Source: an uncultured Prevotellaceae bacterium
Lineage (GTDB): Bacteria; Bacteroidota; Bacteroidia; Bacteroidales; Bacteroidaceae
Direction of reading: 5' to 3'
DNA: 64,000 bases
NCBI GenBank assembly: GCA_902767045.1
Contig: CACXFT010000104.1
Location: 7,481-71,480, forward strand
Shown: positions 8,879 through 22,365 of the stretch, piece after piece
How positions within the stretch are numbered: position 1 is the stretch's first letter
Layout of the letters: the number at the start of each line of letters is the position of its first letter
Made by a program: the position numbers and the translations under genes
The notes under the pieces: model-generated
What the model was told of the DNA's origin: nothing
Seen by the model: only the letters and a program-made list of their open reading frames with translations
Databases searched by the model: none

Positions 8879-8944
8879 ATCCATAATTGCATATAACAAA
8901 AAATTTATTTATCTTTGCAACCAAACATCAAAAAATCATTTGTT

Positions 8945-9196
8945 ATGTGTACTGTAACTTTATCTTATAATAAAAATGACAAGGTGGCATGCGAAAAGCT
9001 CGATGCACTGCTAAATACGGGTCTCTTCATGCAACTCGACAGTCACGATGGTATTGATATAGACTATACGAACTCATCCCTCTATGAGATAGACCCTTCG
9101 CTCCCAGCAATTAATCGCGACTTGTCTCCTCAAGAATTGGAAGAACTTATTTTAGAAGACATACATTCTATTTATGAAGGTAAATATGCCGTATAG
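8945..9196 (+). CDS. Small acidic protein, putative antitoxin
   Basis: 83-aa acidic ORF; ATG 8945 follows a TATCTTTG box (8910-8917); stop overlaps the start of the next ORF. Confidence 0.55.
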   Translation: MCTVTLSYNKNDKVACEKLDALLNTGLFMQLDSHDGIDIDYTNSSLYEIDPSLPAINRDLSPQELEELILEDIHSIYEGKYAV

Positions 9197-9479
9197 TTAT
9201 GTTGTCAAGCCACTAGCTTCTCAAAAGATTTGGTCTTTCTATCGAAACGTGGCAAGGAAATACGCCCATACTTTCGATGAAGACGATTTGATTAGAAACG
9301 TAAAGGGCGCTGTTCGCCCAATGCTTCTCATTGAGTCGAGACTATTAAGGCGCACACCTATTATTAGTCGCTGGACAGGTAAGTATATGGCCCATTCGGG
9401 TTCTTGGTATTATGCCTATACCATTGAAGGCAACAAGATTATCATTCACGATGCCTGTCACCAGCAAAACATGCATTAG
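9186..9479 (+). CDS. Putative RelE/ParE-superfamily toxin-like protein
   Basis: 97-aa basic ORF; C-terminal WYYAYTIEGNKIIIHDACH resembles the RelE/ParE (Y.I....V.I..I.H) pattern; coupled to upstream acidic ORF. Confidence 0.55.
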   Translation: MPYSYVVKPLASQKIWSFYRNVARKYAHTFDEDDLIRNVKGAVRPMLLIESRLLRRTPIISRWTGKYMAHSGSWYYAYTIEGNKIIIHDACHQQNMH

Positions 9480-9946: not shown

Positions 9947-10025
9947 TCTTTGTGCCTAAATACTGCAGCTTCACTAAAAAATCTATTTCATAACTAATTG
10001 GTAAACATTTTTAAGGAAATATTTT

Positions 10026-12749
10026 ATGGGAAAATTTTTTAACCTGTGGCTCTTGGGACTATTGTTCCAAATTGTTTCGTCAGAGATTCACGCATCTGAT
10101 TACGTTGTCAATTACGGCTATGAGTATGGCTCGTTTTATTTTCAGAATGGGGTGTCGGCTAACAATGCATATGCCGCTTACTGGTTGTCTACACAGACGG
10201 AACCTCAACTAAAGCTGGCCGTGGCTAGGGGGTATAACAACATAGATGTAAAATCTCATTTAGGGGCTCTGTTTGTTGGGTCAAGGCAAAGTCCTTATGA
10301 ATTGAGTGTATCGGAAGGGTTTGTTATAACTGGGTATTCTGTAGTTGGGAAGGCTTTGTCATTTGAGCAAACTTTTACTCCTTCCGAGGGAGGTGAACCG
10401 GTGATCTTCAATTCTTCCGAAGAATCAACGGTTGTTGTAGATAATCTTCGAACGGAGAGCACATCATTTACACTGACAGGAGCTAATACAGGATTGGAAA
10501 TAATATCCTTTGAAATTTATGTAGATGTTGATGCAGAACGCACGGCAGATCTTGCTGCACACTACAATGCAGCTCTCGCATCTTTGGAATCTGGCAACAA
10601 GTATTGGATTTCTACATTATATTCCTTAGACTCATTGGATGCAAAACGTTTTTACCTTGATTCAGAAGGAGCACTTACAGATGATTTTACTAAAGCTAAT
10701 GCATTTATCCTGACAAGCACTACGGCCACATCTTCGTTTCGCCCGATCGGATGGAAAGCTGAAGGCATTTCATTCAGTAGCCCTTACATAGAGCGTGGTT
10801 ATCTTACCAATGTAAATCATATTATGACGAATGTTGCCCAAGACCGTGATGACTGGGAGACACAAGTTTATCTGAAAGGAGATAATCATTATGCTATCCG
10901 CTCAACGAATGTCAATTCGGCAGAATATTTTGCCAACACCTATTGGGCTGTTACTGATGTCAATATGGATAGTATTCCTGAGGCAAATTATTCTGAAGAG
11001 CGAACATACGTTTGGGACGTGATACCTTACGATTCTGTTAAAGAGGCCTCGCTCCTTCTTGCAGCTATGGCAGAAGAGTATCGTGGCATACAAATAGAGA
11101 AATGCGACCTTACTTTACTTTCCCAGTATAATACTCTTCTTAAAAATGCAATAGAGATTTCGAATTCTGATTTTGATTCAAATAATCACAACGAAGAATG
11201 TGTTGCTCTACTGCCAGAATTAAAGACTGCTTTCAATGCAGTTCAGGCTTCTGTTGAGTCCTACAAGAACTATCAACTTCAAGTAGACAAGGTAATGAAT
11301 GCCGCTAACAGCTGCTTAATACCAGATTCGCCATTAGCCATCGAATTAATGTCTATGGCAACACAATTGCAAGATAACATTGATCTTGGGGCTGCCCAAG
11401 ACTCAGATTTCAAGAATGTTGACAGTCTGATCACTGAAAAGCGGAATTATTGGAGCTGTCATCTCACAGAGGCAGACAAAGAACCTTTATACAGCTTGGT
11501 TGAACAAGTGCCCATGGCTGTTCTATGGGATCTTGATGCCGAAGAACTGTCGCTTGACGGGGTTACCATCGCCGAGGGAACCGTAACCGGAATAGACCTT
11601 TCCGGCAAGGGCTTATTTGGAGAGTTCCCATTGTCTGTTCTTCTTGAAATGCCGCACTTGGCACATATCAACCTCAGCAACAATGGTGTCAGTAGCTGTG
11701 ATGTAGAATGGAACAGCGATGATGTTACTGTGAATCTTCACAATCAGAATCTATTAGATGTGATAGAGTTCAACCTTTCCACTTGTAGCGATGCCACGAT
11801 TCCTTCGCAATTATCACCCATCCTGCTGTATGAAAACGGCAAGTTGACATCTAACTATTCTGTTTGTGCGCAAGGCAATTCCTGGACATTGGGTATCAAT
11901 AATTCCAATGAGGATGGCAAGATGGTGTTCGAACCCGGTTATCCGTTCGTATATGATGGTGAGAGTGGTGATGAAGTAACGTTCACGAGTATGGGCGGCG
12001 ACGCATCGGGTTCTACATTTTCGATGCAAATTTCATTCGACCAGGGTGATGCAAGTTTCGACGGCGCAATAGATATAGCCGACTTGCAGATGATGATTAA
12101 TTATATTTTCAATATGCTTCAAACGGGCGACATGTTTAATCTTGCAGCTGCTGACCTTTGGAACGACAATAAAATTAATGTTCAGGATATAGTGAAGGAA
12201 GTGGACCTGTTGCTTGGGCAAACTGCTGAGGAAGCAGAAAGCAGAGGGCTGAATCAGGTAGCTCGCTTGCCTCTTCACTTGCTTTCACACCATTCTGGAG
12301 CACAGGCCCGACTCGGTTTTGTAGACGGGCAGCTACAGATAGAGTCTAACCACCCTGTTGCAGCCATTCACCTGGTGTTGAATGCTGCCAGCGATATAGA
12401 CTGGAGTTTGTTGCGTAGCTTGGGCTTCAGTGTTAGCAGTCGCACCCAAGGAAACGACGTTCATTTTATTGCTTACTCGTTGAGTGGGGCAGAAATTCCA
12501 ATGGGAACAACGGTTATTGCAACAACAGACGACGATGCCGCTCAAATCAGATCTGCCAGAATTACAGACAGTGCTGCTAAATATATCGACGTTGAGCTGA
12601 ACTCTCATGAACTGACAAATGTTGGAACTGTTTCTGAGCGTGTGAAGTCTGACTCTTCCGACTATTATGACCTTCAGGGAAGGGCGATTTCCTCTCCGAC
12701 CCGGCGCGGTGTGTATATTCACAAGCAGAAGAAAATTGTAGTTAGATAA
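10026..12749 (+). CDS. Secreted multidomain protein: beta-rich N-terminus, helical bundle, short LRR, dockerin, cohesin-like domain, T9SS-type C-terminal signal
   Basis: Signal peptide; VTGIDLSGKGLFGEFP..L.HINLSNN (LRR); GDASFDGAIDIADL...ADLWNDNKINVQDIV (dockerin); terminal YYDLQGR...GVYIHKQKKIVVR. Confidence 0.8.
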   Translation: MGKFFNLWLLGLLFQIVSSEIHASDYVVNYGYEYGSFYFQNGVSANNAYAAYWLSTQTEPQLKLAVARGYNNIDVKSHLGALFVGSRQSPYELSVSEGFVITGYSVVGKALSFEQTFTPSEGGEPVIFNSSEESTVVVDNLRTESTSFTLTGANTGLEIISFEIYVDVDAERTADLAAHYNAALASLESGNKYWISTLYSLDSLDAKRFYLDSEGALTDDFTKANAFILTSTTATSSFRPIGWKAEGISFSSPYIERGYLTNVNHIMTNVAQDRDDWETQVYLKGDNHYAIRSTNVNSAEYFANTYWAVTDVNMDSIPEANYSEERTYVWDVIPYDSVKEASLLLAAMAEEYRGIQIEKCDLTLLSQYNTLLKNAIEISNSDFDSNNHNEECVALLPELKTAFNAVQASVESYKNYQLQVDKVMNAANSCLIPDSPLAIELMSMATQLQDNIDLGAAQDSDFKNVDSLITEKRNYWSCHLTEADKEPLYSLVEQVPMAVLWDLDAEELSLDGVTIAEGTVTGIDLSGKGLFGEFPLSVLLEMPHLAHINLSNNGVSSCDVEWNSDDVTVNLHNQNLLDVIEFNLSTCSDATIPSQLSPILLYENGKLTSNYSVCAQGNSWTLGINNSNEDGKMVFEPGYPFVYDGESGDEVTFTSMGGDASGSTFSMQISFDQGDASFDGAIDIADLQMMINYIFNMLQTGDMFNLAAADLWNDNKINVQDIVKEVDLLLGQTAEEAESRGLNQVARLPLHLLSHHSGAQARLGFVDGQLQIESNHPVAAIHLVLNAASDIDWSLLRSLGFSVSSRTQGNDVHFIAYSLSGAEIPMGTTVIATTDDDAAQIRSARITDSAAKYIDVELNSHELTNVGTVSERVKSDSSDYYDLQGRAISSPTRRGVYIHKQKKIVVR

Positions 12750-12796
12750 TTTATTTTTACGATGTTATCATCTTTACCATTTATAAACTCAATCAG

Positions 12797-15700
12797 ATGA
12801 AAACAAAAACTTATATTCTCTTTGTGCTGATTGCACTTATGAGTGTTCGCGTTGCACAAGCGCAGCAAACGAACAAACTGAGTATTCCTGACCTCACCGC
12901 ATTGGCAGGAAAAACCATTTCATTGCCTGTTTGCTTAGATAACAGCAACGAGATTGTTGCTGTGGAGTTTGATTTGCAGATTCCCGATGGTTCTACTCTG
13001 TTGGCCGATTCGAAAGTATTAACGAATCGTGCTACAGACCACGAAGCGGTGTTTCGTGCAAAGGGTAATAACACATACCATTGTCTCATTTATTCTCCCA
13101 CCAACAGTGCATTTCTTGGTCGAACCGGCGAGCTGTTGACAGTGAACATGCAGGTGAGTGATTCGTATGCAGAAAACAGCCAGCACAACATCAATTTAGC
13201 AGATGTTGTTTTGGCATTGCGCAATGGTGAAAATGTTGCAACAGAGACGAAGGCCGGAATTCTAACCATGCAAAAAGGTCCCGACCTGGCAGTGACTGAT
13301 GTTGTGGCAAATGCCGCAAGCTATGTTCCTGGAAGTTTGGCCACAGTTAGTTGGCAGGTGAAGAACGTGGGTGCTATGTCAACCGGAGGCGGATGGACGG
13401 AATATCTGTCGTTAAAAAATGGAAGTGGTGTTTCCACTCTCCTTTCCACCACCGTGTTCGATGGAACGCTTGAAGCTGGAGGAACTGTGAGTCGTCAGGT
13501 GGAAATCTCCCTTCCCAGTATTCTTGGAATTGATGGCGAGGCTTTGTTCGAAGTGGAAATAAAACCGCAATCGGCAACGAGAGAATCTAAGGGATTGCTG
13601 CGGAACAATGTTGCTTCGTCCGAATCTGCTGTTACATTTGGAAAAGCATTATCCATGTTTTTACCGGCGAGCGTAGAAGAAACATCTACGCGCCCAGTAA
13701 GTTGTATGCTTTCACGCAGTGGCAATCGTTCTGTTGCCGAAACCTTCACCATTGTTACTTCACAGGATGGTCGGCTGAGTGCACCTCAAACAGTTACTAT
13801 ACCTGCCGGTCAGTCGTCGGTTAATTTCTATCTGCAGTTGTCAGACAATGATATTCTCGACGAAAACGATGAAGTAACCATTACTATTTCCGGCAATAAT
13901 TATACGGAGATTCATAGCAAAATCACTATTGTTGACAATGAATATCCCGACTTGACAGTAGAGTCAAGCAAGAGTGTTGTTTCGGAGGGAGAAGCCTTTC
14001 AGCTTACTATTTTAGCGAGTCGTGCCCCTAAGGAAAACCTTACCATCTCGTTGTCGAGCGAGGTGACAGGTCGTTTCAATTTACCTTCCACCGCTATCTT
14101 ACCTGCAGGTGAAAGTCAACTCGTGGTGGATGTTGTAGCCAAAGACGACGACATACCAAGCCTTGAACTTTCTAATGCCTTCACTGCATACGCCCCGGCT
14201 TATAACAAAGGACAGGCAATAGTCATTCTAAACGATGATGATGTTCCGGCTTTAGAGCTGACACTCACACCAAACATAGTTTCGGAAAGTGACAGTCCGA
14301 TTGCCGTGGCAGCTAAATTGCGCCGTACGGGAGTAACCAATAATAAAATTATTGTGAAACTTTCTGATGACAGCGATGGCGGCGTTTACTGTGGACAGAA
14401 AGAAATTGTATTGGAAAAAGGAGTTGAAGAGGTTAACTTTAATATAGGTCCAAAAGACAATGTGAATGTTGATGGCGACCGAACGGTAAACGTTACGGCA
14501 GCTGTTTATATTGCTTCTTGTTCGTGCAGTGCTACCGGCGAGTCGGCAGGTGTAGTGTCTACCCCACTCACCATATTAGATGATGATGGTCCGGCCTTGT
14601 CTTTAGTGTCGGCAGTAAGCACACTGAAGGAGGGCGGTTCCACATCGTTGACCATCAGCAGGAATACCGATACTTCGCAGCCGATAACTGTAACTTTGAG
14701 CAGCGACCACGACCAGTATCTGAGCTACGAGCATTCTGTGGTGATTCCCGCCGACAAAAAGTCTGTTACTATTGATGTGGCATCTTCACTCAGCGGACAG
14801 CAGGGAGATTCTTTCACGGCAGTCTTCACAGCCCAGTCCGACGGTTTCAGCGCAGGCACTTGCTATATGATGGTTACAGATCAAGACTTGCCCGATGCCA
14901 AAGTTACCATCTCTGCCAACAAAACCGAAGCGGAAGTGGAAACGGAGGTTGAACTTACAATTGATGTAGTTAATGTTGGTGCCGCTGAACTACCTATGGG
15001 CACATTAGTAACTCTTTATGGACCATCGTTAAAAAAAACATTCCGTACAACATTAAATTTGTCAGTAGGGCAATCAGAAACTATAAAAACTAATATTACC
15101 CTACCAACTTCAATAGGTCAGGTTAGATATTATGCTGTTGTTAATGAAAACGATGGTACTACAGAACTTTCAAAGAACAATAATACGTCGCCAGTTGTTG
15201 AATTGACAATAGTTTCCCCTTATTCAGCTACTGTGAGTGTAGAGAAAGCTATTTATGAGGCTGGCGAATCGGTTATGATAACTGGAAAACTGACTGGAAC
15301 TAATATTACTGGACAAAAGGTAGATGTTTATGTTGTTCTAAATGGTGGGAGAGAGTCACTGCTAACAAAATCTGATGATACGGGTTCATTCAGTGTCACA
15401 TGGACTCCAAAGTCTTCTATTGCAGGGCATTTTCTTGTTGGTGCTTGCTATCCTGGTGAAAATCGCACAGAAGGACTTTGTTCGTTTGACGTTTACGGAC
15501 TGAGAAGGGTTTTCAACAATAGCATAGAATGTGATGTTACTCTTGGAGATGCTGCTCGTGGAACAGTTCAACTACAAAACCTTTGCAATCTTCCTTTGAC
15601 GGGAGTTCAGGCAGAAATATTGGATTCTCCGGCAAATTGCGATGCTTCTGTGAGCATAGCTCCCACTATTGATGGTAAGTCGAATGTTGAATTGAATTAC

Positions 15701-18700
15701 GAATTAACTGGAACATCCGTTACAGAAGGAAATCATTGGGATGAAGTAAAGATTCGCGTCTCAACAGACCAGGGCGTGTCGACAGATTTCTCACTTTGGT
15801 TTTATTGCCGTGCACAAAAGCCTTTACTACAACTTAGTACCAAAAACATCAAAACGACGATGACGAAAGGGAAAACACGCGAATATCCTATTACCATTAC
15901 GAACATCGGACGAACAGCTACAAGCAATATCCAATTGTTGCTTCCAGAGTGGATGGATGCGTCAACAGGAAAAAACCTGCCATCTCTTGCACAAGGAGAA
16001 TCAGCTACTATAAACCTTCAGTTGACCCCAACAGAATCGATGCAAATGAACAATGTGGTTCATGGATCATTCGGTATAGATTATGGAGGTGATGAAGTGG
16101 CCGATATTTACTATGCTATCACACCCGTCTCGGAGTCAACAGGCACACTGATTGTTGATGTAAAAGACGAAAATACCTTTTATACAGAAGAAGCACCACA
16201 CCTTGAAGGTGCAACGGTAAGTATAACAAAACCAAATGGTGAATTGGCTGCCGAAGGAACCACTAATACAGATGGCCTTTATGTGGTAGACATTCCGGAA
16301 GGACCATATTACATGCAGGTATCTGCGCCTCATCATCGCAGTTCGGAGCGCAAGACAATCATCATTGATCCAGGCATTGAAAACCGACATAATGTGACCA
16401 TTAGCATCGATGCCGTTCAGGTGGATTATACTGTTCAGCCAACTACGGTGGAAGAAAGGTATGAGGTTGTGACAAGTGTAAGCTACATGACGGATGTGCC
16501 CGTGCCAGTTGTTTTGCTTACCTGCCCTTCAGGAATAAACGGTGACGATATGCAAGTTGGCGAGAGTAAATTACTCACATTTACATTAACCAACAAAGGC
16601 CTAATTCGTGCAGATAATGTATATCTTCACATTCCACAGGCCAATGAATATTGGAGTATGGAGGCTATCAGTTCAAATGGCCCATTCTCTCTTGCTCCCC
16701 AGACAATGCAGAGTGTTTCTGTTGTTCTAACAAAACTTGGTGGCACCCAAAATGAAACGAACAGAATTAGAAGGTCTGGCAAAACAGGCGAAGAAATATT
16801 AGAGGAATCTGTCTATGAAACAGGTTCATCTTTTACCCGCTGTATGGCCAATATGGCATTTCAATATCAGTGGATTTGTGGAGAAGACATAAGATCGAAT
16901 CATGCAGCTCTTACGGTAGCTTTAGCCACATGTACAGCTGGATCTATTGCCGCCGGGCTTTCCAATCTATTCTCAAATCTTCAGTTTGGTGGCATTGGTG
17001 GAGGTGGAGGCAATGGCGGCTCTCCTGTTTCTGCTCCTAATAACGCTCAACAATCAACCTACCAGCCTGTTACAGACCAGACACCCACTGTTGCATCGAA
17101 AGATATGGTGACATTTTGCGACCCTAAGGATGCTGCATGTGGTTTGTCAATAGTCAAAGGAAGTGCTTCATTTGTAGATGCTCCTTCTGCAGCTATGCTA
17201 ACAGGACTTATAGACTATTCGGAAAAGATGATAGAGGTGCAGGAGCAATATGCGCAAGCCGAGGCAGAAGGCATATCACAGGACGAAGTAGATAGAGCGC
17301 GTCTTCAGAGCGTTATGAGCGAATGTGCTAAAAGCTTAAAAAAAGTTTTGGAAGATGGAAATAAGGAAATTACTAACTCTTTGGAAAATGGCACATCGTC
17401 GAATAATTCTGATAACCTGCTGAAAATATATGAAGCAGCAAAGTCGATAGCGGGAATCGTGACTTCTTGCGTTCATACATACAACAAGCTCAATCCTCCT
17501 CAGCCTCAGGCCAAGAACAATAATATCAAAACGATGGCAGACTATGCACATTGCTTGTATAACTCTTATTTAGTTATCAAAGAAATATTAGGAACAGATG
17601 ATTGGAAAGATTTGCTGGAAGGTCATGGAAGGAGTCTTCTGGATTATATCATTGAATATGACTGGAAAGATGCCAGTGTCGAATCTTTCTTCGCCGGTGC
17701 TCCTGATATAAGAAGAACTGAAAAGGTGGAAAAACTCGTTGAAAGAATTATTAAAACCTACGACAAGTATTTGTATTTGAAAGAACGTAATAACCCGAGA
17801 CGGTCTTCTTATTTTGATGCGAATGCAGTGGAGGATCCTGAAATTCAAACCGACTATATTGATTTAGGTCGGATCGTTACGCTTTTGACAGAAATTTCCG
17901 AGATGGAACAAGATGCGGTTTCACAAGGTGCTACTTCTTTGGATGAGAAATTCAGAGAGGTCTATCAAGCCTATCAGGAATATTACAATGATCCGTCGGA
18001 ACATATTTGTGCTACCATGAAACTGGAGTTCAAACAGGAGCTTATCTTTACACGAGAAGCATTCGAAGGTACGCTGACAGTTTACAATGGGAATGAAAGC
18101 AATGCAATAACAAATTTAAGAGTTGACTTCACGGTTACCGATGAGGATGGGAACCCCGCAACACCAGATATCATGAATCAGAATCTTAAATCGTGTGAGG
18201 GATTTACAGGTGAAACATCGAATAATCTGAGTGGATGGAATCTCGAACCCAAGGCAACAGGAACAGCAGTCATGCTGTTTATCCCATCCATCAATGCTGC
18301 TCCGATAGAACCCAAATATTACTTGTTTGGTGGTACAGTATCGTATACAGACCCATTTACGGGACTAGAAGTAACACGCGAATTGGTTCCAGTGCGACTT
18401 ATGGTTCACCCGTCACCGCAACTTGAATTGACATATTTCTTGCAAAGCGACATCTATGGAGATGATCCTCTTACGCCTGATGTGACAGAACCATCTGTTC
18501 CATCTGAATTTGCAGTACTTATTAATAATGTAGGCTATGGCGATGCGGGTAATGTGCGCATGGTTACTCATCAACCAACTATTACTGTGAACGAAAAAGG
18601 ACTTGCAAATAACTTTAAAATTGTTGCTTCTCAGTTAAATGGTGGAGCAGAATCACCGGCAATAGGAGAAAGCACAACAACGTTATTTGGAACAATTGGT

Positions 18701-20335
18701 GCTCGTTCTACCTCTTTTGCACAATGGTGGTTTACAAGTGATTTGTCTGGACGTTTTGTCGAGTATGATGTGTCATTGAAAAAGGTGAGCTGTGATTATG
18801 TAACGGAGAATTTGGCTCGTCTTTCAGAATCACCAATCCATACCCTTGTTCGGAGCATCAAGCATGATGTTGGTGATGATATGGTAACCGGGTTCCTTTG
18901 TAACGATGACAATGATATAAGAAATAATCCAGACATTATATATTTTACGAATGGTGAAACATCTGAAGTAAAACTGATTGAAAAGTCTCAAACTACTTCA
19001 ATTTCGTCAACCTCCTACGAGCTCACCATTACTCCTTCATCAGCTGGTTGGAACTATGGCACCATCACCGACCCCACGCAGGGTTATGCCAAGCTGAAGA
19101 GCATACGCAGAAAGAGTGATGGCAAGGAGATGAGCTTGCGCAACTTCTGGCAGACCGACCGAACGCTCGTTGACGGGAAAGACTGGCTCTATGATAACAA
19201 CCTACATTTCGTTGATGAGTTTGGCTCTTCTTCTGAAACCTATATCCTCACATTTGAACCCACTCCGCAAACAGTGCTTGAAGTTGCTTCAATAGAGCTC
19301 GTTCCTGCCGTGGAAGAGGTTGCTGTGGAGCCAGTTGACATGGCAAAGGTCACTTTCTCGAAAGCTATTGACCCTGCCACATTCACCGCCGACGATATTA
19401 CGATGAATGTTCAAGGGGTGAAGCAAAATGCCAGTCTGATAGGTATCACCACAGACGATAATAAAACTTTCACGCTTGACTTGTCGGCCATCAATGCATC
19501 ATGTGGCAATGGTTACTATACCTTGGGTATACAAACCAATGGTATTAATGACTTTGAAGGCTATCAGGGTGCAAACGGCAAAGATCCAACAGGTTGGGTC
19601 TTCTTCCGTGGCGGATTGGTTCAACTTTTAACCAGTGTTTGGCCAGCAGAATCAGGCTCTGTTCAGCGTGTTATGCCCAGTAGTGAGGCAAGAGTGCTGC
19701 GTGCCCCTGTTGCAGAAAAGGTTCTAGACCAAGCTCAGTATGGTTCAACAGTTGTGTTGCAGGCAAGTGCGAAAGAGGGCTTCTCATTCTCTAAATGGAC
19801 TATCGACGGGCAAGAGGTTTCTTCCACCCCGGAGTTTTCAACCCAAGCGACGGGCGACTTAGACATTGTGGCCAATTTCCAGCGCAAGTTCTATTCGGTT
19901 TCCATCGAGAAAGAAGGGAATGGAGGCTCAGTAGCCTATGTGCTCACCGACCCTGACGACGGACAAGTGAGCAGTGTGGAAATGGAAGGTAGCGGCAATT
20001 ATAAGTATGGAACAAAATTTGTGTTAAGAGCAACACCTGATGAGGGATATCTCTTTGATGGATGGACTGTTAATGGAACGTTGGCAGAGAGTAAGCAGGA
20101 ACTCGCGCTTACCGTCACCAACAAGTCTAGCATCACGGCAAAGTTCTCACCTGAGTATATCCTCGGTGATGCCAATGGCGACAAGGTTGTGAACATTGCC
20201 GATGTTACTGCCATTATCAACAGAATCAACAGCACCGACAATATCAATTTTGTAGAAAAAGCTGCCGATGTGAATGGTGATGGAATGATTTCCATTGCCG
20301 ACGTAACCGGTGTTATAAACATTATTCATCAGTAA
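12797..20335 (+). CDS. Giant 2512-aa secreted protein: N-terminal cohesin-like, CARDB, Calx-beta-like and Ig-like repeats, InlB B-repeat-like units, C-terminal dockerin
   Basis: Signal peptide AQA; LSIPDL...ISLPV.LDN...AVEFDLQIPDG (cohesin-like); PDLAV..V...W.VKNVG (CARDB); repeated I.D[ND]D.P.L; A..GY.F..WT.NG; GDANGDKVVNIADVT..ADVNGDGMISIADVT. Confidence 0.85.
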   Translation: MKTKTYILFVLIALMSVRVAQAQQTNKLSIPDLTALAGKTISLPVCLDNSNEIVAVEFDLQIPDGSTLLADSKVLTNRATDHEAVFRAKGNNTYHCLIYSPTNSAFLGRTGELLTVNMQVSDSYAENSQHNINLADVVLALRNGENVATETKAGILTMQKGPDLAVTDVVANAASYVPGSLATVSWQVKNVGAMSTGGGWTEYLSLKNGSGVSTLLSTTVFDGTLEAGGTVSRQVEISLPSILGIDGEALFEVEIKPQSATRESKGLLRNNVASSESAVTFGKALSMFLPASVEETSTRPVSCMLSRSGNRSVAETFTIVTSQDGRLSAPQTVTIPAGQSSVNFYLQLSDNDILDENDEVTITISGNNYTEIHSKITIVDNEYPDLTVESSKSVVSEGEAFQLTILASRAPKENLTISLSSEVTGRFNLPSTAILPAGESQLVVDVVAKDDDIPSLELSNAFTAYAPAYNKGQAIVILNDDDVPALELTLTPNIVSESDSPIAVAAKLRRTGVTNNKIIVKLSDDSDGGVYCGQKEIVLEKGVEEVNFNIGPKDNVNVDGDRTVNVTAAVYIASCSCSATGESAGVVSTPLTILDDDGPALSLVSAVSTLKEGGSTSLTISRNTDTSQPITVTLSSDHDQYLSYEHSVVIPADKKSVTIDVASSLSGQQGDSFTAVFTAQSDGFSAGTCYMMVTDQDLPDAKVTISANKTEAEVETEVELTIDVVNVGAAELPMGTLVTLYGPSLKKTFRTTLNLSVGQSETIKTNITLPTSIGQVRYYAVVNENDGTTELSKNNNTSPVVELTIVSPYSATVSVEKAIYEAGESVMITGKLTGTNITGQKVDVYVVLNGGRESLLTKSDDTGSFSVTWTPKSSIAGHFLVGACYPGENRTEGLCSFDVYGLRRVFNNSIECDVTLGDAARGTVQLQNLCNLPLTGVQAEILDSPANCDASVSIAPTIDGKSNVELNYELTGTSVTEGNHWDEVKIRVSTDQGVSTDFSLWFYCRAQKPLLQLSTKNIKTTMTKGKTREYPITITNIGRTATSNIQLLLPEWMDASTGKNLPSLAQGESATINLQLTPTESMQMNNVVHGSFGIDYGGDEVADIYYAITPVSESTGTLIVDVKDENTFYTEEAPHLEGATVSITKPNGELAAEGTTNTDGLYVVDIPEGPYYMQVSAPHHRSSERKTIIIDPGIENRHNVTISIDAVQVDYTVQPTTVEERYEVVTSVSYMTDVPVPVVLLTCPSGINGDDMQVGESKLLTFTLTNKGLIRADNVYLHIPQANEYWSMEAISSNGPFSLAPQTMQSVSVVLTKLGGTQNETNRIRRSGKTGEEILEESVYETGSSFTRCMANMAFQYQWICGEDIRSNHAALTVALATCTAGSIAAGLSNLFSNLQFGGIGGGGGNGGSPVSAPNNAQQSTYQPVTDQTPTVASKDMVTFCDPKDAACGLSIVKGSASFVDAPSAAMLTGLIDYSEKMIEVQEQYAQAEAEGISQDEVDRARLQSVMSECAKSLKKVLEDGNKEITNSLENGTSSNNSDNLLKIYEAAKSIAGIVTSCVHTYNKLNPPQPQAKNNNIKTMADYAHCLYNSYLVIKEILGTDDWKDLLEGHGRSLLDYIIEYDWKDASVESFFAGAPDIRRTEKVEKLVERIIKTYDKYLYLKERNNPRRSSYFDANAVEDPEIQTDYIDLGRIVTLLTEISEMEQDAVSQGATSLDEKFREVYQAYQEYYNDPSEHICATMKLEFKQELIFTREAFEGTLTVYNGNESNAITNLRVDFTVTDEDGNPATPDIMNQNLKSCEGFTGETSNNLSGWNLEPKATGTAVMLFIPSINAAPIEPKYYLFGGTVSYTDPFTGLEVTRELVPVRLMVHPSPQLELTYFLQSDIYGDDPLTPDVTEPSVPSEFAVLINNVGYGDAGNVRMVTHQPTITVNEKGLANNFKIVASQLNGGAESPAIGESTTTLFGTIGARSTSFAQWWFTSDLSGRFVEYDVSLKKVSCDYVTENLARLSESPIHTLVRSIKHDVGDDMVTGFLCNDDNDIRNNPDIIYFTNGETSEVKLIEKSQTTSISSTSYELTITPSSAGWNYGTITDPTQGYAKLKSIRRKSDGKEMSLRNFWQTDRTLVDGKDWLYDNNLHFVDEFGSSSETYILTFEPTPQTVLEVASIELVPAVEEVAVEPVDMAKVTFSKAIDPATFTADDITMNVQGVKQNASLIGITTDDNKTFTLDLSAINASCGNGYYTLGIQTNGINDFEGYQGANGKDPTGWVFFRGGLVQLLTSVWPAESGSVQRVMPSSEARVLRAPVAEKVLDQAQYGSTVVLQASAKEGFSFSKWTIDGQEVSSTPEFSTQATGDLDIVANFQRKFYSVSIEKEGNGGSVAYVLTDPDDGQVSSVEMEGSGNYKYGTKFVLRATPDEGYLFDGWTVNGTLAESKQELALTVTNKSSITAKFSPEYILGDANGDKVVNIADVTAIINRINSTDNINFVEKAADVNGDGMISIADVTGVINIIHQ

Positions 20336-20355
20336 ATTTTAAAATAGCAAAGAAT

Positions 20356-21552
20356 ATGTTGAAGAAAATATTCATTTCGTTCGTGTTATGTTTGGTGTTG
20401 GGTATGCCAGCATTATCACAAGAGAGACTCTTTGTAGATAACCTGCAAATACCGCGTGGGTATCAGACAATGATGAAGGTTTCTTTCCAATTCAATGAGC
20501 CACACGATTATGTGAGTTATCAATTTACTGTTAACTTACCAGAGGGGGTTTCTCTAAAGTCAAGTGCAAATGGTAAAGTGCCTGTTGTATTGGGCGATGG
20601 GCAGCCTAACGACTTGTTTGTGTTGGATATGAACGCCACAAGCCGGATTGTAACATGCTATTCCAATCCTTCCACCCCAATTAGTTTAAATGAAGGAATA
20701 TTGGTGTACATTCCGATTATAGCTGATAAGGCTCTTCAAGCAGGCACCACTCTGAATGGTTCGTTGTCTTCCATTCAACTTGCTCATGCAGATGCCTCGC
20801 CAGCTAATCTGGGCGATGTCAGTTTTGCCATTACCATTGATGACAGGGCTGTCCTCGATGAGCAGTCTACCACTATACCAGCCCCTGCAGAGGGGGTTGA
20901 CGTACAGGTGAAACGTACCATCAAGGCCAACCAGTGGTCGACCATCTGTCTGCCTTTCGCCATGACGGAGCAACAAACCAAGGATGCTTTTGGCAGCGAA
21001 GTGCAAATAGCCGATTTCAATGATTATGTGTATGATGGCGTTAATAACACCATACAGGTGCTCTTTCAGCCGGTGACGGCAATGGAAGCCAACCATCCTT
21101 ATATTATTAAGGTGGCCGGTGCGGTGACCGATTTTATAGCCGACGGAGTAGACATCAATCCACAGGAAGCAATCGTAGACTTTGACACCAGTAGGCGGAA
21201 AAACCAACCACGGCAGTTCGTGGGCACCTATGTGGCCGGCACTGTGCTCGGGTGGGGAACTCTGTTCCTGAGCGACAACCGGTTTTGGTATTCCACGGGA
21301 CAGACAAAGATGAAAGCTTTCCGCGGCTACTTCAACTTCAACGATCTGATTGCCGACTTTGAACAGAACTACGAATCGCGCATTGTGATGTTCGTGGGGG
21401 ATGAGGCTACAGGCATGGGCGACGCTTTGCGTCTAAATGATAAATGTAAAATGATAAATGAGATGTACGACCTGCAGGGCCGTCGCGTGAACAATCCACA
21501 ACAGGGGGTCTATATCAGAAACGGAAAGAAAGTTGTAGTCACTTCTAATTAA
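20356..21552 (+). CDS. Secreted protein with N-terminal cohesin-like domain and T9SS-type C-terminal signal
   Basis: Signal peptide; YVSYQFTVNLPEGVSL (cohesin-like); WSTICLPF and AFRGYF motifs of Prevotella CTD-adjacent domains; terminal MYDLQGRRV...GVYIRNGKKVVV. Confidence 0.75.
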   Translation: MLKKIFISFVLCLVLGMPALSQERLFVDNLQIPRGYQTMMKVSFQFNEPHDYVSYQFTVNLPEGVSLKSSANGKVPVVLGDGQPNDLFVLDMNATSRIVTCYSNPSTPISLNEGILVYIPIIADKALQAGTTLNGSLSSIQLAHADASPANLGDVSFAITIDDRAVLDEQSTTIPAPAEGVDVQVKRTIKANQWSTICLPFAMTEQQTKDAFGSEVQIADFNDYVYDGVNNTIQVLFQPVTAMEANHPYIIKVAGAVTDFIADGVDINPQEAIVDFDTSRRKNQPRQFVGTYVAGTVLGWGTLFLSDNRFWYSTGQTKMKAFRGYFNFNDLIADFEQNYESRIVMFVGDEATGMGDALRLNDKCKMINEMYDLQGRRVNNPQQGVYIRNGKKVVVTSN

Positions 21553-21563
21553 ACACGAAAGCT

Positions 21564-21743
21564 ATGAAAAAAGAATATATACAACCCCAGACGAGCATTG
21601 TTATTGCTGTAGTGGAGAATCCGGTAATGAATGTTTCGGCAACGCAGCAAGGTATCAGCTATGGTGGTGTTGATGAAGCGGGCGAAAAAGATCCCGATGC
21701 CCGCGAGATGTCGCCGCTCCATTATAACGTTTGGGACGACTGA
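21564..21743 (+). CDS. 59-aa peptide MKKEYIQPQT...HYNVWDD (not in ORF track)
   Basis: Hand-translated; starts 11 nt after previous stop with A-rich leader; MKKxYxxP N-terminus and acidic W-D-D C-terminus. Confidence 0.75.
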   Translation: MKKEYIQPQTSIVIAVVENPVMNVSATQQGISYGGVDEAGEKDPDAREMSPLHYNVWDD

Positions 21744-21773
21744 TTGAGTTACTTAAATATTCTCACCTTATTA

Positions 21774-21871
21774 ATTTATCAAGAATTAGAGAATTTGAGA
21801 ATTTTTCCTTTAGTGCTATAGTAGGATTATTGGTAATAAATAATTCTTAGATTCTCAAATTCTTGATAAAT
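21774..21871. repeat. AT-rich inverted repeat built from 8-bp AGAATT-core units
   Basis: 30-bp arms 21774-21803 and 21842-21871, 27/30 complementary; left arm recurs at 43005-43038. Confidence 0.75.
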
Positions 21872-22365
21872 AATAACTTAGCCCACATTGCTGCGTTTTT
21901 AACAATTTACATGGCATTGCCTTGTCTTGCAATTCCAGATTACTCAATGCATAGAGAGGAACTATGTCTACATGCCGTTGTTCGAATTGGTCCTTGGGGT
22001 CATAGTGGTTGAACTGGCCGAAGTTTTCCAACGATGTTCTGATTGCTTCGTGCAGCTTACGCTTTCTCATGAAGATCCAAAGGCTCTGCATGCTTCCCTG
22101 CGTGTTGGCCTTCACTTCGATGGGTAGTACCTTACCGCCATGAGCCCTCAGATAATCCACTTCTGCATTGCTACCCTTTTCCGTGTTCTGCCAATAGTGC
22201 ATCTCTGGCTTCTGAAAGCAGTCACGATATTTTATCATTTCCAGTCCGGCGAACATTTCTGATGTACCGCCTTTGTTAACTAATTCTGCATCGGATGCAG
22301 TCAGAATATCGGCAGCCGGGATGTCAAGCATGGTAAGCATCACACCTAAGTCGAAGAACAGATAT
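21855..22365 (-). pseudogene. C-terminal remnant (DUF4143-like) of an AAA-family ATP-binding protein
   Basis: YLFFDLG...YWQ....NAEVDYL...VLPIEVKA...SL...IVPLYAL; no Walker A domain upstream, only T-rich low-complexity sequence before rlmH. Confidence 0.75.

Follow-up and report, generated by a model that had tools for sequence, protein, structure and literature searches.

The genes examined here, which we call A, B and C, lie side by side in a window of 64,000 nucleotides (contig CACXFT010000104.1 of assembly GCA_902767045.1, from an uncultured Prevotellaceae bacterium) and encode secreted proteins that carry dockerin and cohesin modules. We find that their products probably form an ordered chain (we put the probability at about 0.7), in which the dockerin of A would bind the cohesin of B and the dockerin of B would bind the cohesin of C, joining a head, a stalk and a surface anchor. 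The initial annotation of this DNA had suggested either this order or head-to-tail polymers of B, and comparative genomics, in the form of dockerin classes, gene adjacency and covariation, favours the former.

Dockerin and cohesin modules of A, B and C

A, B and C are three co-oriented open reading frames (ORFs) separated by gaps of only 47 and 20 bp, and each begins with a Sec-type signal peptide, as expected from their earlier description as closely spaced secreted proteins; the coordinates given then are correct against the translations of A and B. It had also been stated that no carbohydrate-active enzyme (CAZyme) or protease domain is recognisable, and Pfam indeed matches no such family in the three proteins.

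Both of the dockerins first proposed are genuine. That of B (Dockerin_1, PF00404, aa 2456–2510) is matched by Pfam at E 1.7e-9 and 38.2 bits; both of its calcium loops have the form D-x-N-x-D...D, its recognition residues are symmetric in an alignment of 17 relatives, and the protein ends two residues beyond it with no further tail. The dockerin of A has a canonical first loop (DASFDGAIDIAD) and an atypical second loop (DLWNDNKINVQD) with Trp at position 3. Its Dockerin_1 match (aa 674–722) scores 22.7 bits in the whole protein and 28.9 bits for the isolated domain (cut-off 22.9), and its model superimposes on dockerin 2ccl_B (Z 5.7, 61 aa) and on 6kg9 (root-mean-square deviation, rmsd, 1.9). 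The residues at dockerin positions 10 and 11 are as had been read earlier from the translations, IA/VQ in A and IA/IA in B.

The cohesin calls were the weaker part of the initial annotation, and single-sequence searches of the PDB with the three beta domains find no cohesin; profiles and folds were needed. For C, an AlphaFold model built from 59 homologues (predicted local distance difference test score, pLDDT, 87.8) confirms a cohesin fold, the nine-stranded jelly-roll beta-sandwich of about 140 aa, at aa 21–164, where an exhaustive structural search (VIA) gives cohesins in all of its top 20 rows (Z 15.8–11.0; the best, 5nrk_A, aligns over 135 aa at rmsd 2.3) and Foldseek gives cohesin matches at probability 1.0. 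A profile of the C family, which has 2413 members in the protein collection searched, matches the cohesin of ScaE (2zf9) at E 0.02, with a fold match of Z 11.6. Pfam does not match the C cohesin itself; its cohesin family PF00963 is present in some C homologues. The N-terminal domain of B is matched by PF00963 (aa 27–151, profile positions 2–130 of 139) at 24.3 bits when isolated, against a cut-off of 24.1, and at 23.8/24.3 bits in a genome-wide scan; Pfam run on the whole B protein misses it. The profile of the B family matches cohesin 2xdh_A at E 0.05, and hhalign pairs it with the C family at 99.6% (E 1e-24), a homology from which we infer that the B domain is a jelly roll as well. The B domain nevertheless belongs to a class of its own, scoring 2e-55 on a hidden Markov model (HMM) of B-type cohesins vs 7e-16 on one of C-type cohesins.

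The cohesin-like call in A stands in a shortened form only. A model of the A dockerin together with the domain that follows it, built from 62 related tails, has pLDDT 87.8 and a predicted template modelling (pTM) score of 0.75. The second domain (aa 757–860) has no Pfam match; its top 19 VIA rows are all cohesins (Z 8.1–5.8, about 100 aa aligned, rmsd 2.4), cohesins are its top Foldseek matches (E 1.7e-4), and hhalign aligns it with the B-type cohesin profile at 91% (E 9e-7). By these models it is a truncated relative of cohesins that retains about 100 of the 140 cohesin positions. All three beta domains that had been called cohesin-like are accordingly cohesin folds or relatives of them, that of A being truncated, and the archaeal cohesin 2xdh is among the best sequence or fold matches of all three.

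Table 1. Features of the A-B-C locus (positions in the window; strand; basis of the assignment).
Feature	Position	Strand	Basis
Gene A, 907 aa: signal peptide, head with leucine-rich repeat (LRR)-like stretch, A-type dockerin, shortened cohesin-like domain, short type IX secretion system (T9SS) tail	10026..12749	+	ORF, translation
A-type dockerin, A aa 672-731	12039..12218	+	Pfam Dockerin_1, model, class HMM
Shortened cohesin-like beta-sandwich, A aa 757-860	12294..12605	+	model, VIA, Foldseek, hhalign
Short T9SS-type C-terminal tail of A (YYDLQGR...RGVYIHKQKKIVVR)	12606..12746	+	genome-wide tail sharing, motif comparison
Gene B, 2512 aa: signal peptide, N-terminal cohesin, giant body, terminal dockerin, no T9SS tail	12797..20335	+	ORF, translation, Pfam
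B N-terminal cohesin, aa 25-165	12869..13291	+	Pfam Cohesin, profile, hhalign
B terminal dockerin, aa 2454-2512, canonical, internally symmetric (NIAD / SIAD)	20156..20332	+	Pfam, alignment
Gene C, 398 aa: signal peptide, cohesin, Cmid domain, short T9SS tail	20356..21552	+	ORF, translation, model
C cohesin, aa 21-164	20416..20847	+	VIA, Foldseek, family profile
Cmid beta-sandwich, no Pfam family	20851..21390	+	model, paralogues in host genome and genus
Short T9SS-type tail of C (ATGM...MYDLQGRRVNNPQQGVYIRNGKKVVV)	21391..21549	+	family consensus, profile

Each dockerin class is encoded beside its own cohesin class

We compared the locus with 160 related loci, 80 of them found with the B family and scanned with HMMs made from our own alignments, and 80 of them metagenome loci found with the C family. 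B relatives are proteins of 2200–3100 aa present in 455 species-level genomes, mostly of Bacteroidales. Class HMMs divide the dockerins cleanly into two classes. A-type dockerins (n=64) are always internal, lie 157–216 aa before the C-terminus, score 54.5–103 bits on the A-type HMM vs 0–54 bits on the B-type HMM, and share a conserved atypical second loop (D-x-aromatic-x-D..INVQD); the A dockerin itself scores 93 vs 37 bits. They stand at the start of a fixed cassette, dockerin, mini-cohesin and tail, with the cohesin-like domain directly after the dockerin in 62 of 62 tails. Canonical, B-type dockerins are internally symmetric and mostly at the extreme C-terminus, and the recognition residues of the terminal ones, although symmetric inside each dockerin, differ between species.

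An A-type dockerin gene lies directly upstream of a B gene with an N-terminal cohesin at 63 of the 73 evaluable B loci, which come from different species; nine loci have neither the cohesin nor the upstream dockerin, and a single one is discordant. The A heads range from 414 to 2608 aa and the stretch ahead of the A-type cassette from about 140 to 2300 aa, with a constant tail cassette, which fits a variable head on a constant connector. Gene A itself has few close homologues, and its N-terminal half is one that LRR/PKD proteins also have. Six B relatives (L022, L050, L078, L080, L084 and L086) have an N-terminal extension of about 220–320 aa before the cohesin and no upstream A-type dockerin gene; L050 and L086 are Prevotella, and the other four are labelled Muribaculaceae/Sangeribacter or Bacteroides. 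In these proteins the extension may stand in for a separate head protein.

At the other end of the stalk, the majority of B relatives finish in a T9SS-type tail of some kind. Five, including the present B, finish in a dockerin and are scattered on a tree of the conserved core, whose supported branches force at least four dockerin/tail changes; judged by this tree, the dockerin-ended form has arisen several times. A C gene follows four of these five and none of the 53 tail-ended relatives (naive Fisher p 1e-5). Cultivable carriers include both forms: Xylanibacter rodentium PROD (L060) has a dockerin-ended B together with C, and Leyella stercorea (L092) has A with a tail-ended B. The loci found with the C family, 61 of 80 of which include upstream DNA, give the same picture: the upstream gene is dockerin-ended (within 30 aa of the C-terminus) at 58 of the 61, with a median gap of 26 bp to the C homologue. 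The B-type score exceeds the A-type score in 57 of these 58 terminal dockerins, not one of the 58 proteins carries a T9SS tail, and 44 of the 52 complete dockerin-terminated proteins have a signal peptide. In four cases (L029, P0187, P0206 and P0224) a single fused chain comprises B, the dockerin, the C-type cohesin and the tail. The proteins upstream of C homologues are diverse, and seven that we sampled are BspA-type LRR, CotH, Big_2 or ricin-lectin proteins; the payloads look like adhesins. Neighbourhood conservation, named at the outset as a check on the proposed complex, is thus observed, each dockerin class lying beside its own cohesin class in dozens of species.

Dockerins and cohesins also covary. 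Over 58 pairs, distances among terminal dockerins correlate with those among the downstream cohesins (Mantel r 0.74) and do so almost equally when the next domain of C, Cmid, is controlled for (partial r 0.73), whereas the correlation of the dockerins with Cmid of the same C protein is 0.16 and falls to 0.01 given the cohesin. For A-type dockerins and B cohesins (63 pairs) r is also 0.74; controlling for the B core leaves a partial r of 0.66, and controlling for the mini-cohesin one of 0.53. Finally, among 151 genomes of the genus scanned with the cohesin profile and PF00404, 52 have both modules, 6 only the cohesin, 14 only the dockerin and 79 neither, an odds ratio of 49 among related genomes that are not independent of one another.

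Several observations touch on these families without bearing directly on the pairing. In 37 of the 58 proteins upstream of C homologues (from L093–L172) the ending is a cohesin plus a dockerin; such a protein could be an adaptor that recruits a further dockerin protein. We dropped the idea that this cargo homopolymerises on C because its internal cohesins resemble the anchor cohesins of other loci (27% identity) about as much as that of their own locus (29%). The host genome has a second dockerin/cohesin pair outside the window (G000:C20:9741-11277). Its first gene encodes a secreted protein of 200 aa with a symmetric C-terminal dockerin (SSAD/SSAD), a member of a small conserved family (HWT.N..FQY.MT) that also occurs ahead of C-type genes in L093, L106 and L111; 4 bp further on begins a gene for a cohesin protein, which the end of the contig truncates. 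Elsewhere in that genome (G000:C50:21513-24527) a 1004-aa protein has a cohesin, a dockerin, a second weak cohesin, Cmid and a short tail, and by its domain order is a fused form of cargo and anchor. A weak Cohesin match on contig C95 was considered as a B paralogue and rejected, since it is SprA. Three B homologues labelled Roseburia, Erysipelotrichaceae and Flexilinea (L038, L065 and L089) nest in Bacteroidales clades, and L065 and Paraprevotella L014 have identical cores; the likely explanation is mis-binning of the contigs, not gene transfer.

T9SS-type tails and the remaining domains

The tails of A and C share the pattern YDLQGR..(4-7 aa)..GVYI..KK, and the C-family consensus is TGI...YDLQGRRV(4-5 aa)KGxYIxNGKKxxxK. 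In Prevotella intermedia, short C-terminal domains (CTDs) of T9SS cargo are 40–55 aa long, lie at the extreme C-terminus after a T/GI-type cleavage motif, and consist of motif B (Y..G plus a basic residue), a spacer of 1–6 aa, motif D (GxY-I) and a basic motif E; their cargo is cleaved and glycosylated (PMC11969387). The A tail (YYDLQGRAISSPTRRGVYIHKQKKIVVR) and the C tail agree with this description in position, length and every motif, as compared by eye with the published motifs and not with the HMM of those authors. At least 40 proteins of the host genome share the short tail, and the genome encodes the T9SS component SprA (763.8 bits).

The domain before the tail in C, Cmid, has structural matches in the Atlas (TM score 0.75–0.92) to S8/M6 peptidases, GH5, GH88 and CotH proteins and often precedes the tail in secreted peptidases and glycosidases of Bacteroidota. 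The C-family profile also matches the C-terminus of a rumen arabinanase (4kca, E 2.8e-7). Because Cmid recurs before the tail of many Bacteroidota enzymes, the architecture of C suggests a cohesin attached to a generic T9SS C-terminal cassette.

The body of B contains CARDB, CarboxypepD_reg, Big_5 and two InlB-type B repeats, a Cys/Gly-rich helical insert and the conserved core, which among Atlas structures matches unnamed clusters only. The insert (aa ~1320-1740, window 16765-18010) is predicted to be helical in an otherwise beta-rich stalk. Its cysteines C1349, C1361, C1441 and C1738 are invariant across 24 relatives, and PDB profile searches with it match designed helical bundles only, at E > 0.1.

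Points that weigh against the proposed chain

A number of findings argue against the proposed chain or loosen parts of it. On the side of A, the second calcium loop of the dockerin lacks the usual ligand at position 3, and the cohesin-like domain that directly follows this dockerin could be its real partner. On the side of B and C, the dockerin-ended B of L063 has no C gene nearby, the upstream dockerin gene is missing at 3 of the 61 C loci, related species are not independent, and a phylogenetically paired test, for which only four pairs are available, gives three concordant pairs and one tie (p 0.25). The covariation may come partly from physical linkage; no more than a few hundred bases separate each dockerin from the cohesin taken to be its partner, and because the two are so closely linked, recombination blocks could produce the correlation. 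As to the tails, those of A and C are unmatched by PF18962 and TIGR04183 at E values up to 1, and the short-tail profile matches the long tails of B relatives weakly (hhalign 62%, E 7e-5). The initial call of T9SS-type C-termini therefore stands for the short-CTD motifs and not for the curated families.

Proposed mechanism and alternatives

In the chain that we favour, C would be a one-cohesin anchor whose short T9SS tail directs its export, after which it is probably cleaved and attached to surface lipopolysaccharide (LPS), as is the short-tail cargo of P. intermedia. B would be a giant stalk that no longer carries the T9SS tail found in most of its relatives and whose symmetric dockerin plugs into the cohesin of C, its N-terminal cohesin, of the second class, forming the far end and receiving the atypical internal dockerin of A. 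A, with its own T9SS tail, would then be a variable, adhesin-like head of LRR type at the far end of the stalk. We infer the binding within each pair, a tail function like that in P. intermedia and the binding of a ligand by the head.

How B reaches the surface is a more speculative matter. Because B has a Sec signal and no tail, the only compartment that it would share with a partner before export is the periplasm. B may therefore meet C (or A) there and cross the outer membrane bound to its partner; we tentatively propose, as a possibility somewhat short of an even chance, that the B dockerin binds the C cohesin in the periplasm and that the T9SS translocon exports the folded complex.

Alternatively, B might leave the cell by a route other than the T9SS (vesicles, lysis or an unrecognised signal) and be captured afterwards by C on the surface. 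Cellulosomes are assembled in this manner, by capture of parts that were exported separately, and assembly of B with C in the periplasm is, as just said, speculative. We nevertheless consider separate export doubtful: the dockerin-ended proteins upstream of C homologues uniformly lack a T9SS tail and mostly have Sec signals, their relatives carry a tail at the very position of the dockerin, and no other route across the outer membrane is evident for a soluble protein of 270 kDa, although the genome was not searched for other secretion systems.

A second alternative concerns the head. The A dockerin might bind its own adjacent cohesin-like domain in a self-capped or structural cassette, leaving the B cohesin to bind something else. 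The invariable position of that domain after A-type dockerins, the pTM of the two-domain model and the covariation of the two modules (r 0.67) all suit this arrangement. It appears unlikely to us, however, since the domain is truncated, the covariation of A dockerin with B cohesin persists when the mini-cohesin is taken into account, and at most loci no other dockerin is available for the conserved B cohesin.

Head-to-tail polymers of B, the other arrangement initially suggested, would have the dockerin of one B bind the cohesin of the next, with A and C as caps or unrelated neighbours. B does have one cohesin and one dockerin at opposite ends, and B-type and C-type cohesins are homologous. 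However, the N-terminal cohesin is retained in most B relatives although these finish in a T9SS tail and lack any dockerin, and their cohesin must therefore have another partner. In addition, presence of the B cohesin tracks the upstream A-type dockerin gene, with which it covaries, terminal dockerins track C-type cohesins instead, and the B cohesin fits its own class HMM far better than that of C. Polymers are thus disfavoured, and we regard them as quite improbable.

Least credible of all is the notion that the modules are structural calcium-binding or spacer domains without mutual recognition, for although Bacteroidota dockerins have long been without known partners (in the part of PMC6487960 drawn on here) and Pfam does not see the C cohesin or the A mini-cohesin, the adjacency of dockerin and cohesin genes is conserved, the two modules co-occur across the genus, the covariation is specific to the dockerin-cohesin pair without extending to Cmid, and recognition residues are symmetric within each terminal dockerin and different between species.

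Relation to known systems

The A-B-C locus lacks the hallmarks of a cellulosome or amylosome: Pfam finds no CAZyme family in the three proteins, each has one cohesin, and there is no multi-cohesin scaffoldin. The closest counterpart of C is the single-cohesin anchoring scaffoldin of the ScaE type (Ruminococcus flavefaciens, PDB 2ZF9), which likewise has one cohesin and a C-terminal sorting signal, cleaved by a sortase-type enzyme that fixes the protein to the surface, and which takes dockerin-ended partners. ScaE-type proteins belong to Firmicutes, whereas C is in a Gram-negative host and has the extra domain Cmid. In place of LPXTG it has a short T9SS tail and, as we picture it, a PorU/LPS route. 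Its partners are adhesin-like (BspA-type LRR, CotH and giant stalks) instead of CAZymes, and no route of its own across the outer membrane is evident for the partner of C.

A different parallel for B and C is found in Flavobacterium johnsoniae, whose SprB is reportedly a T9SS cargo of type B with a partner of its own, the PorP/SprF-like protein SprF, encoded just downstream. As proposed for B and C, a giant surface protein there depends for export or anchoring on a dedicated protein encoded immediately downstream; in that case, however, an outer-membrane barrel recognises a type B tail, whereas here a soluble cohesin would recognise a dockerin. The short-CTD cargo of P. intermedia agrees with A and C in tail length and motifs but has the tail on the cargo itself (PMC11969387), whereas B and the 58 related cargo proteins leave it to a separate cohesin protein.

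Cohesins and dockerins outside cellulose degradation are already known, from Archaeoglobus fulgidus (2XDH) and the GH84C enzyme of Clostridium perfringens (2W1N/2O4E), and such modules were described by Peer et al. 2009, as cited in PMC6487960. Their use to join a head, a stalk and an anchor into one surface chain is barely described in Gram-negative bacteria. The A-B-C locus differs from those cases in combining two orthogonal classes in one operon of head, stalk and anchor with T9SS tails. In the rumen, 8.8% of dockerin-containing proteins belong to Bacteroidetes, which contribute 1.7% of the cohesins, and the part of that survey used here names no partners for the orphan dockerins of Prevotella and Bacteroides (Bensoussan et al. 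2017, PMC6487960). A and B are dockerin-bearing Prevotella proteins of the same kind as those of the bovine rumen in that part of the survey, and for them we can name candidate partner cohesins, the T9SS tails of these and a gene-pair rule. No account of cohesin partners with T9SS tails, or of the gene-pair rules, turned up in our search of the open literature; the present comparison adds the assignment of two classes, the covariation and the independent swaps of tail and dockerin in the B family.

Genomic surroundings and occurrence

The assembly of the host is 2.4 Mb long and 86% complete, and the nearest protein relatives of the locus are in metagenome-assembled genomes of rumen and gut Prevotella. 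At least part of the locus DNA is present in 20 runs from 12 studies of bovine and sheep gut metagenomes. Two metatranscriptome libraries from a single study contain contigs that match parts of A, B and C at 95–99% identity, one of these contigs covering the B-C junction (20282–20524); these contigs are a weak hint of expression, their cover being partial and no proof of transcription or of a single transcript. A scan for sigma-70 promoters and terminators gave no more sites than shuffled sequence, with a model that is unsuited to Bacteroidota.

The island that holds A, B and C (window 10001–22000) has a G+C content of 0.42–0.45 vs 0.50–0.55 in the flanks, which contain carB and phosphoglucomutase; the island may have been acquired horizontally, or genes for surface proteins may be biased in composition. 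Between carB and A are two small overlapping ORFs (93 and 101 aa, 8915–9479) that have no significant Pfam family and that the initial annotation took for a possible toxin-antitoxin pair. A 59-aa ORF at 21564–21743, where the initially annotated range ends, has no family match, and DNA contigs of other strains depart from the window sequence around 21775–21870.

Implications

Two rules emerge for reading such loci. A dockerin-ended protein with no tail is followed by a cohesin protein that carries a T9SS tail, and upstream of a giant stalk whose N-terminus is a cohesin stands a variable head bearing a dockerin of the second class. By these rules the 160 related loci and the present one name candidate partners for Prevotella and Bacteroides dockerins that had none in the part of PMC6487960 drawn on here. 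The two pairs are also candidates for orthogonal plug-and-socket connectors from Gram-negative bacteria for use in surface display.

For the organisms themselves, the chain bears on how the abundant Prevotella of the rumen display adhesins and on how heads may be swapped on a constant stalk. It bears as well on whether the T9SS exports proteins that have no signal of their own: if co-export is true, the cohesin-dockerin pair would be, beyond a surface tether, a detachable and exchangeable T9SS signal.

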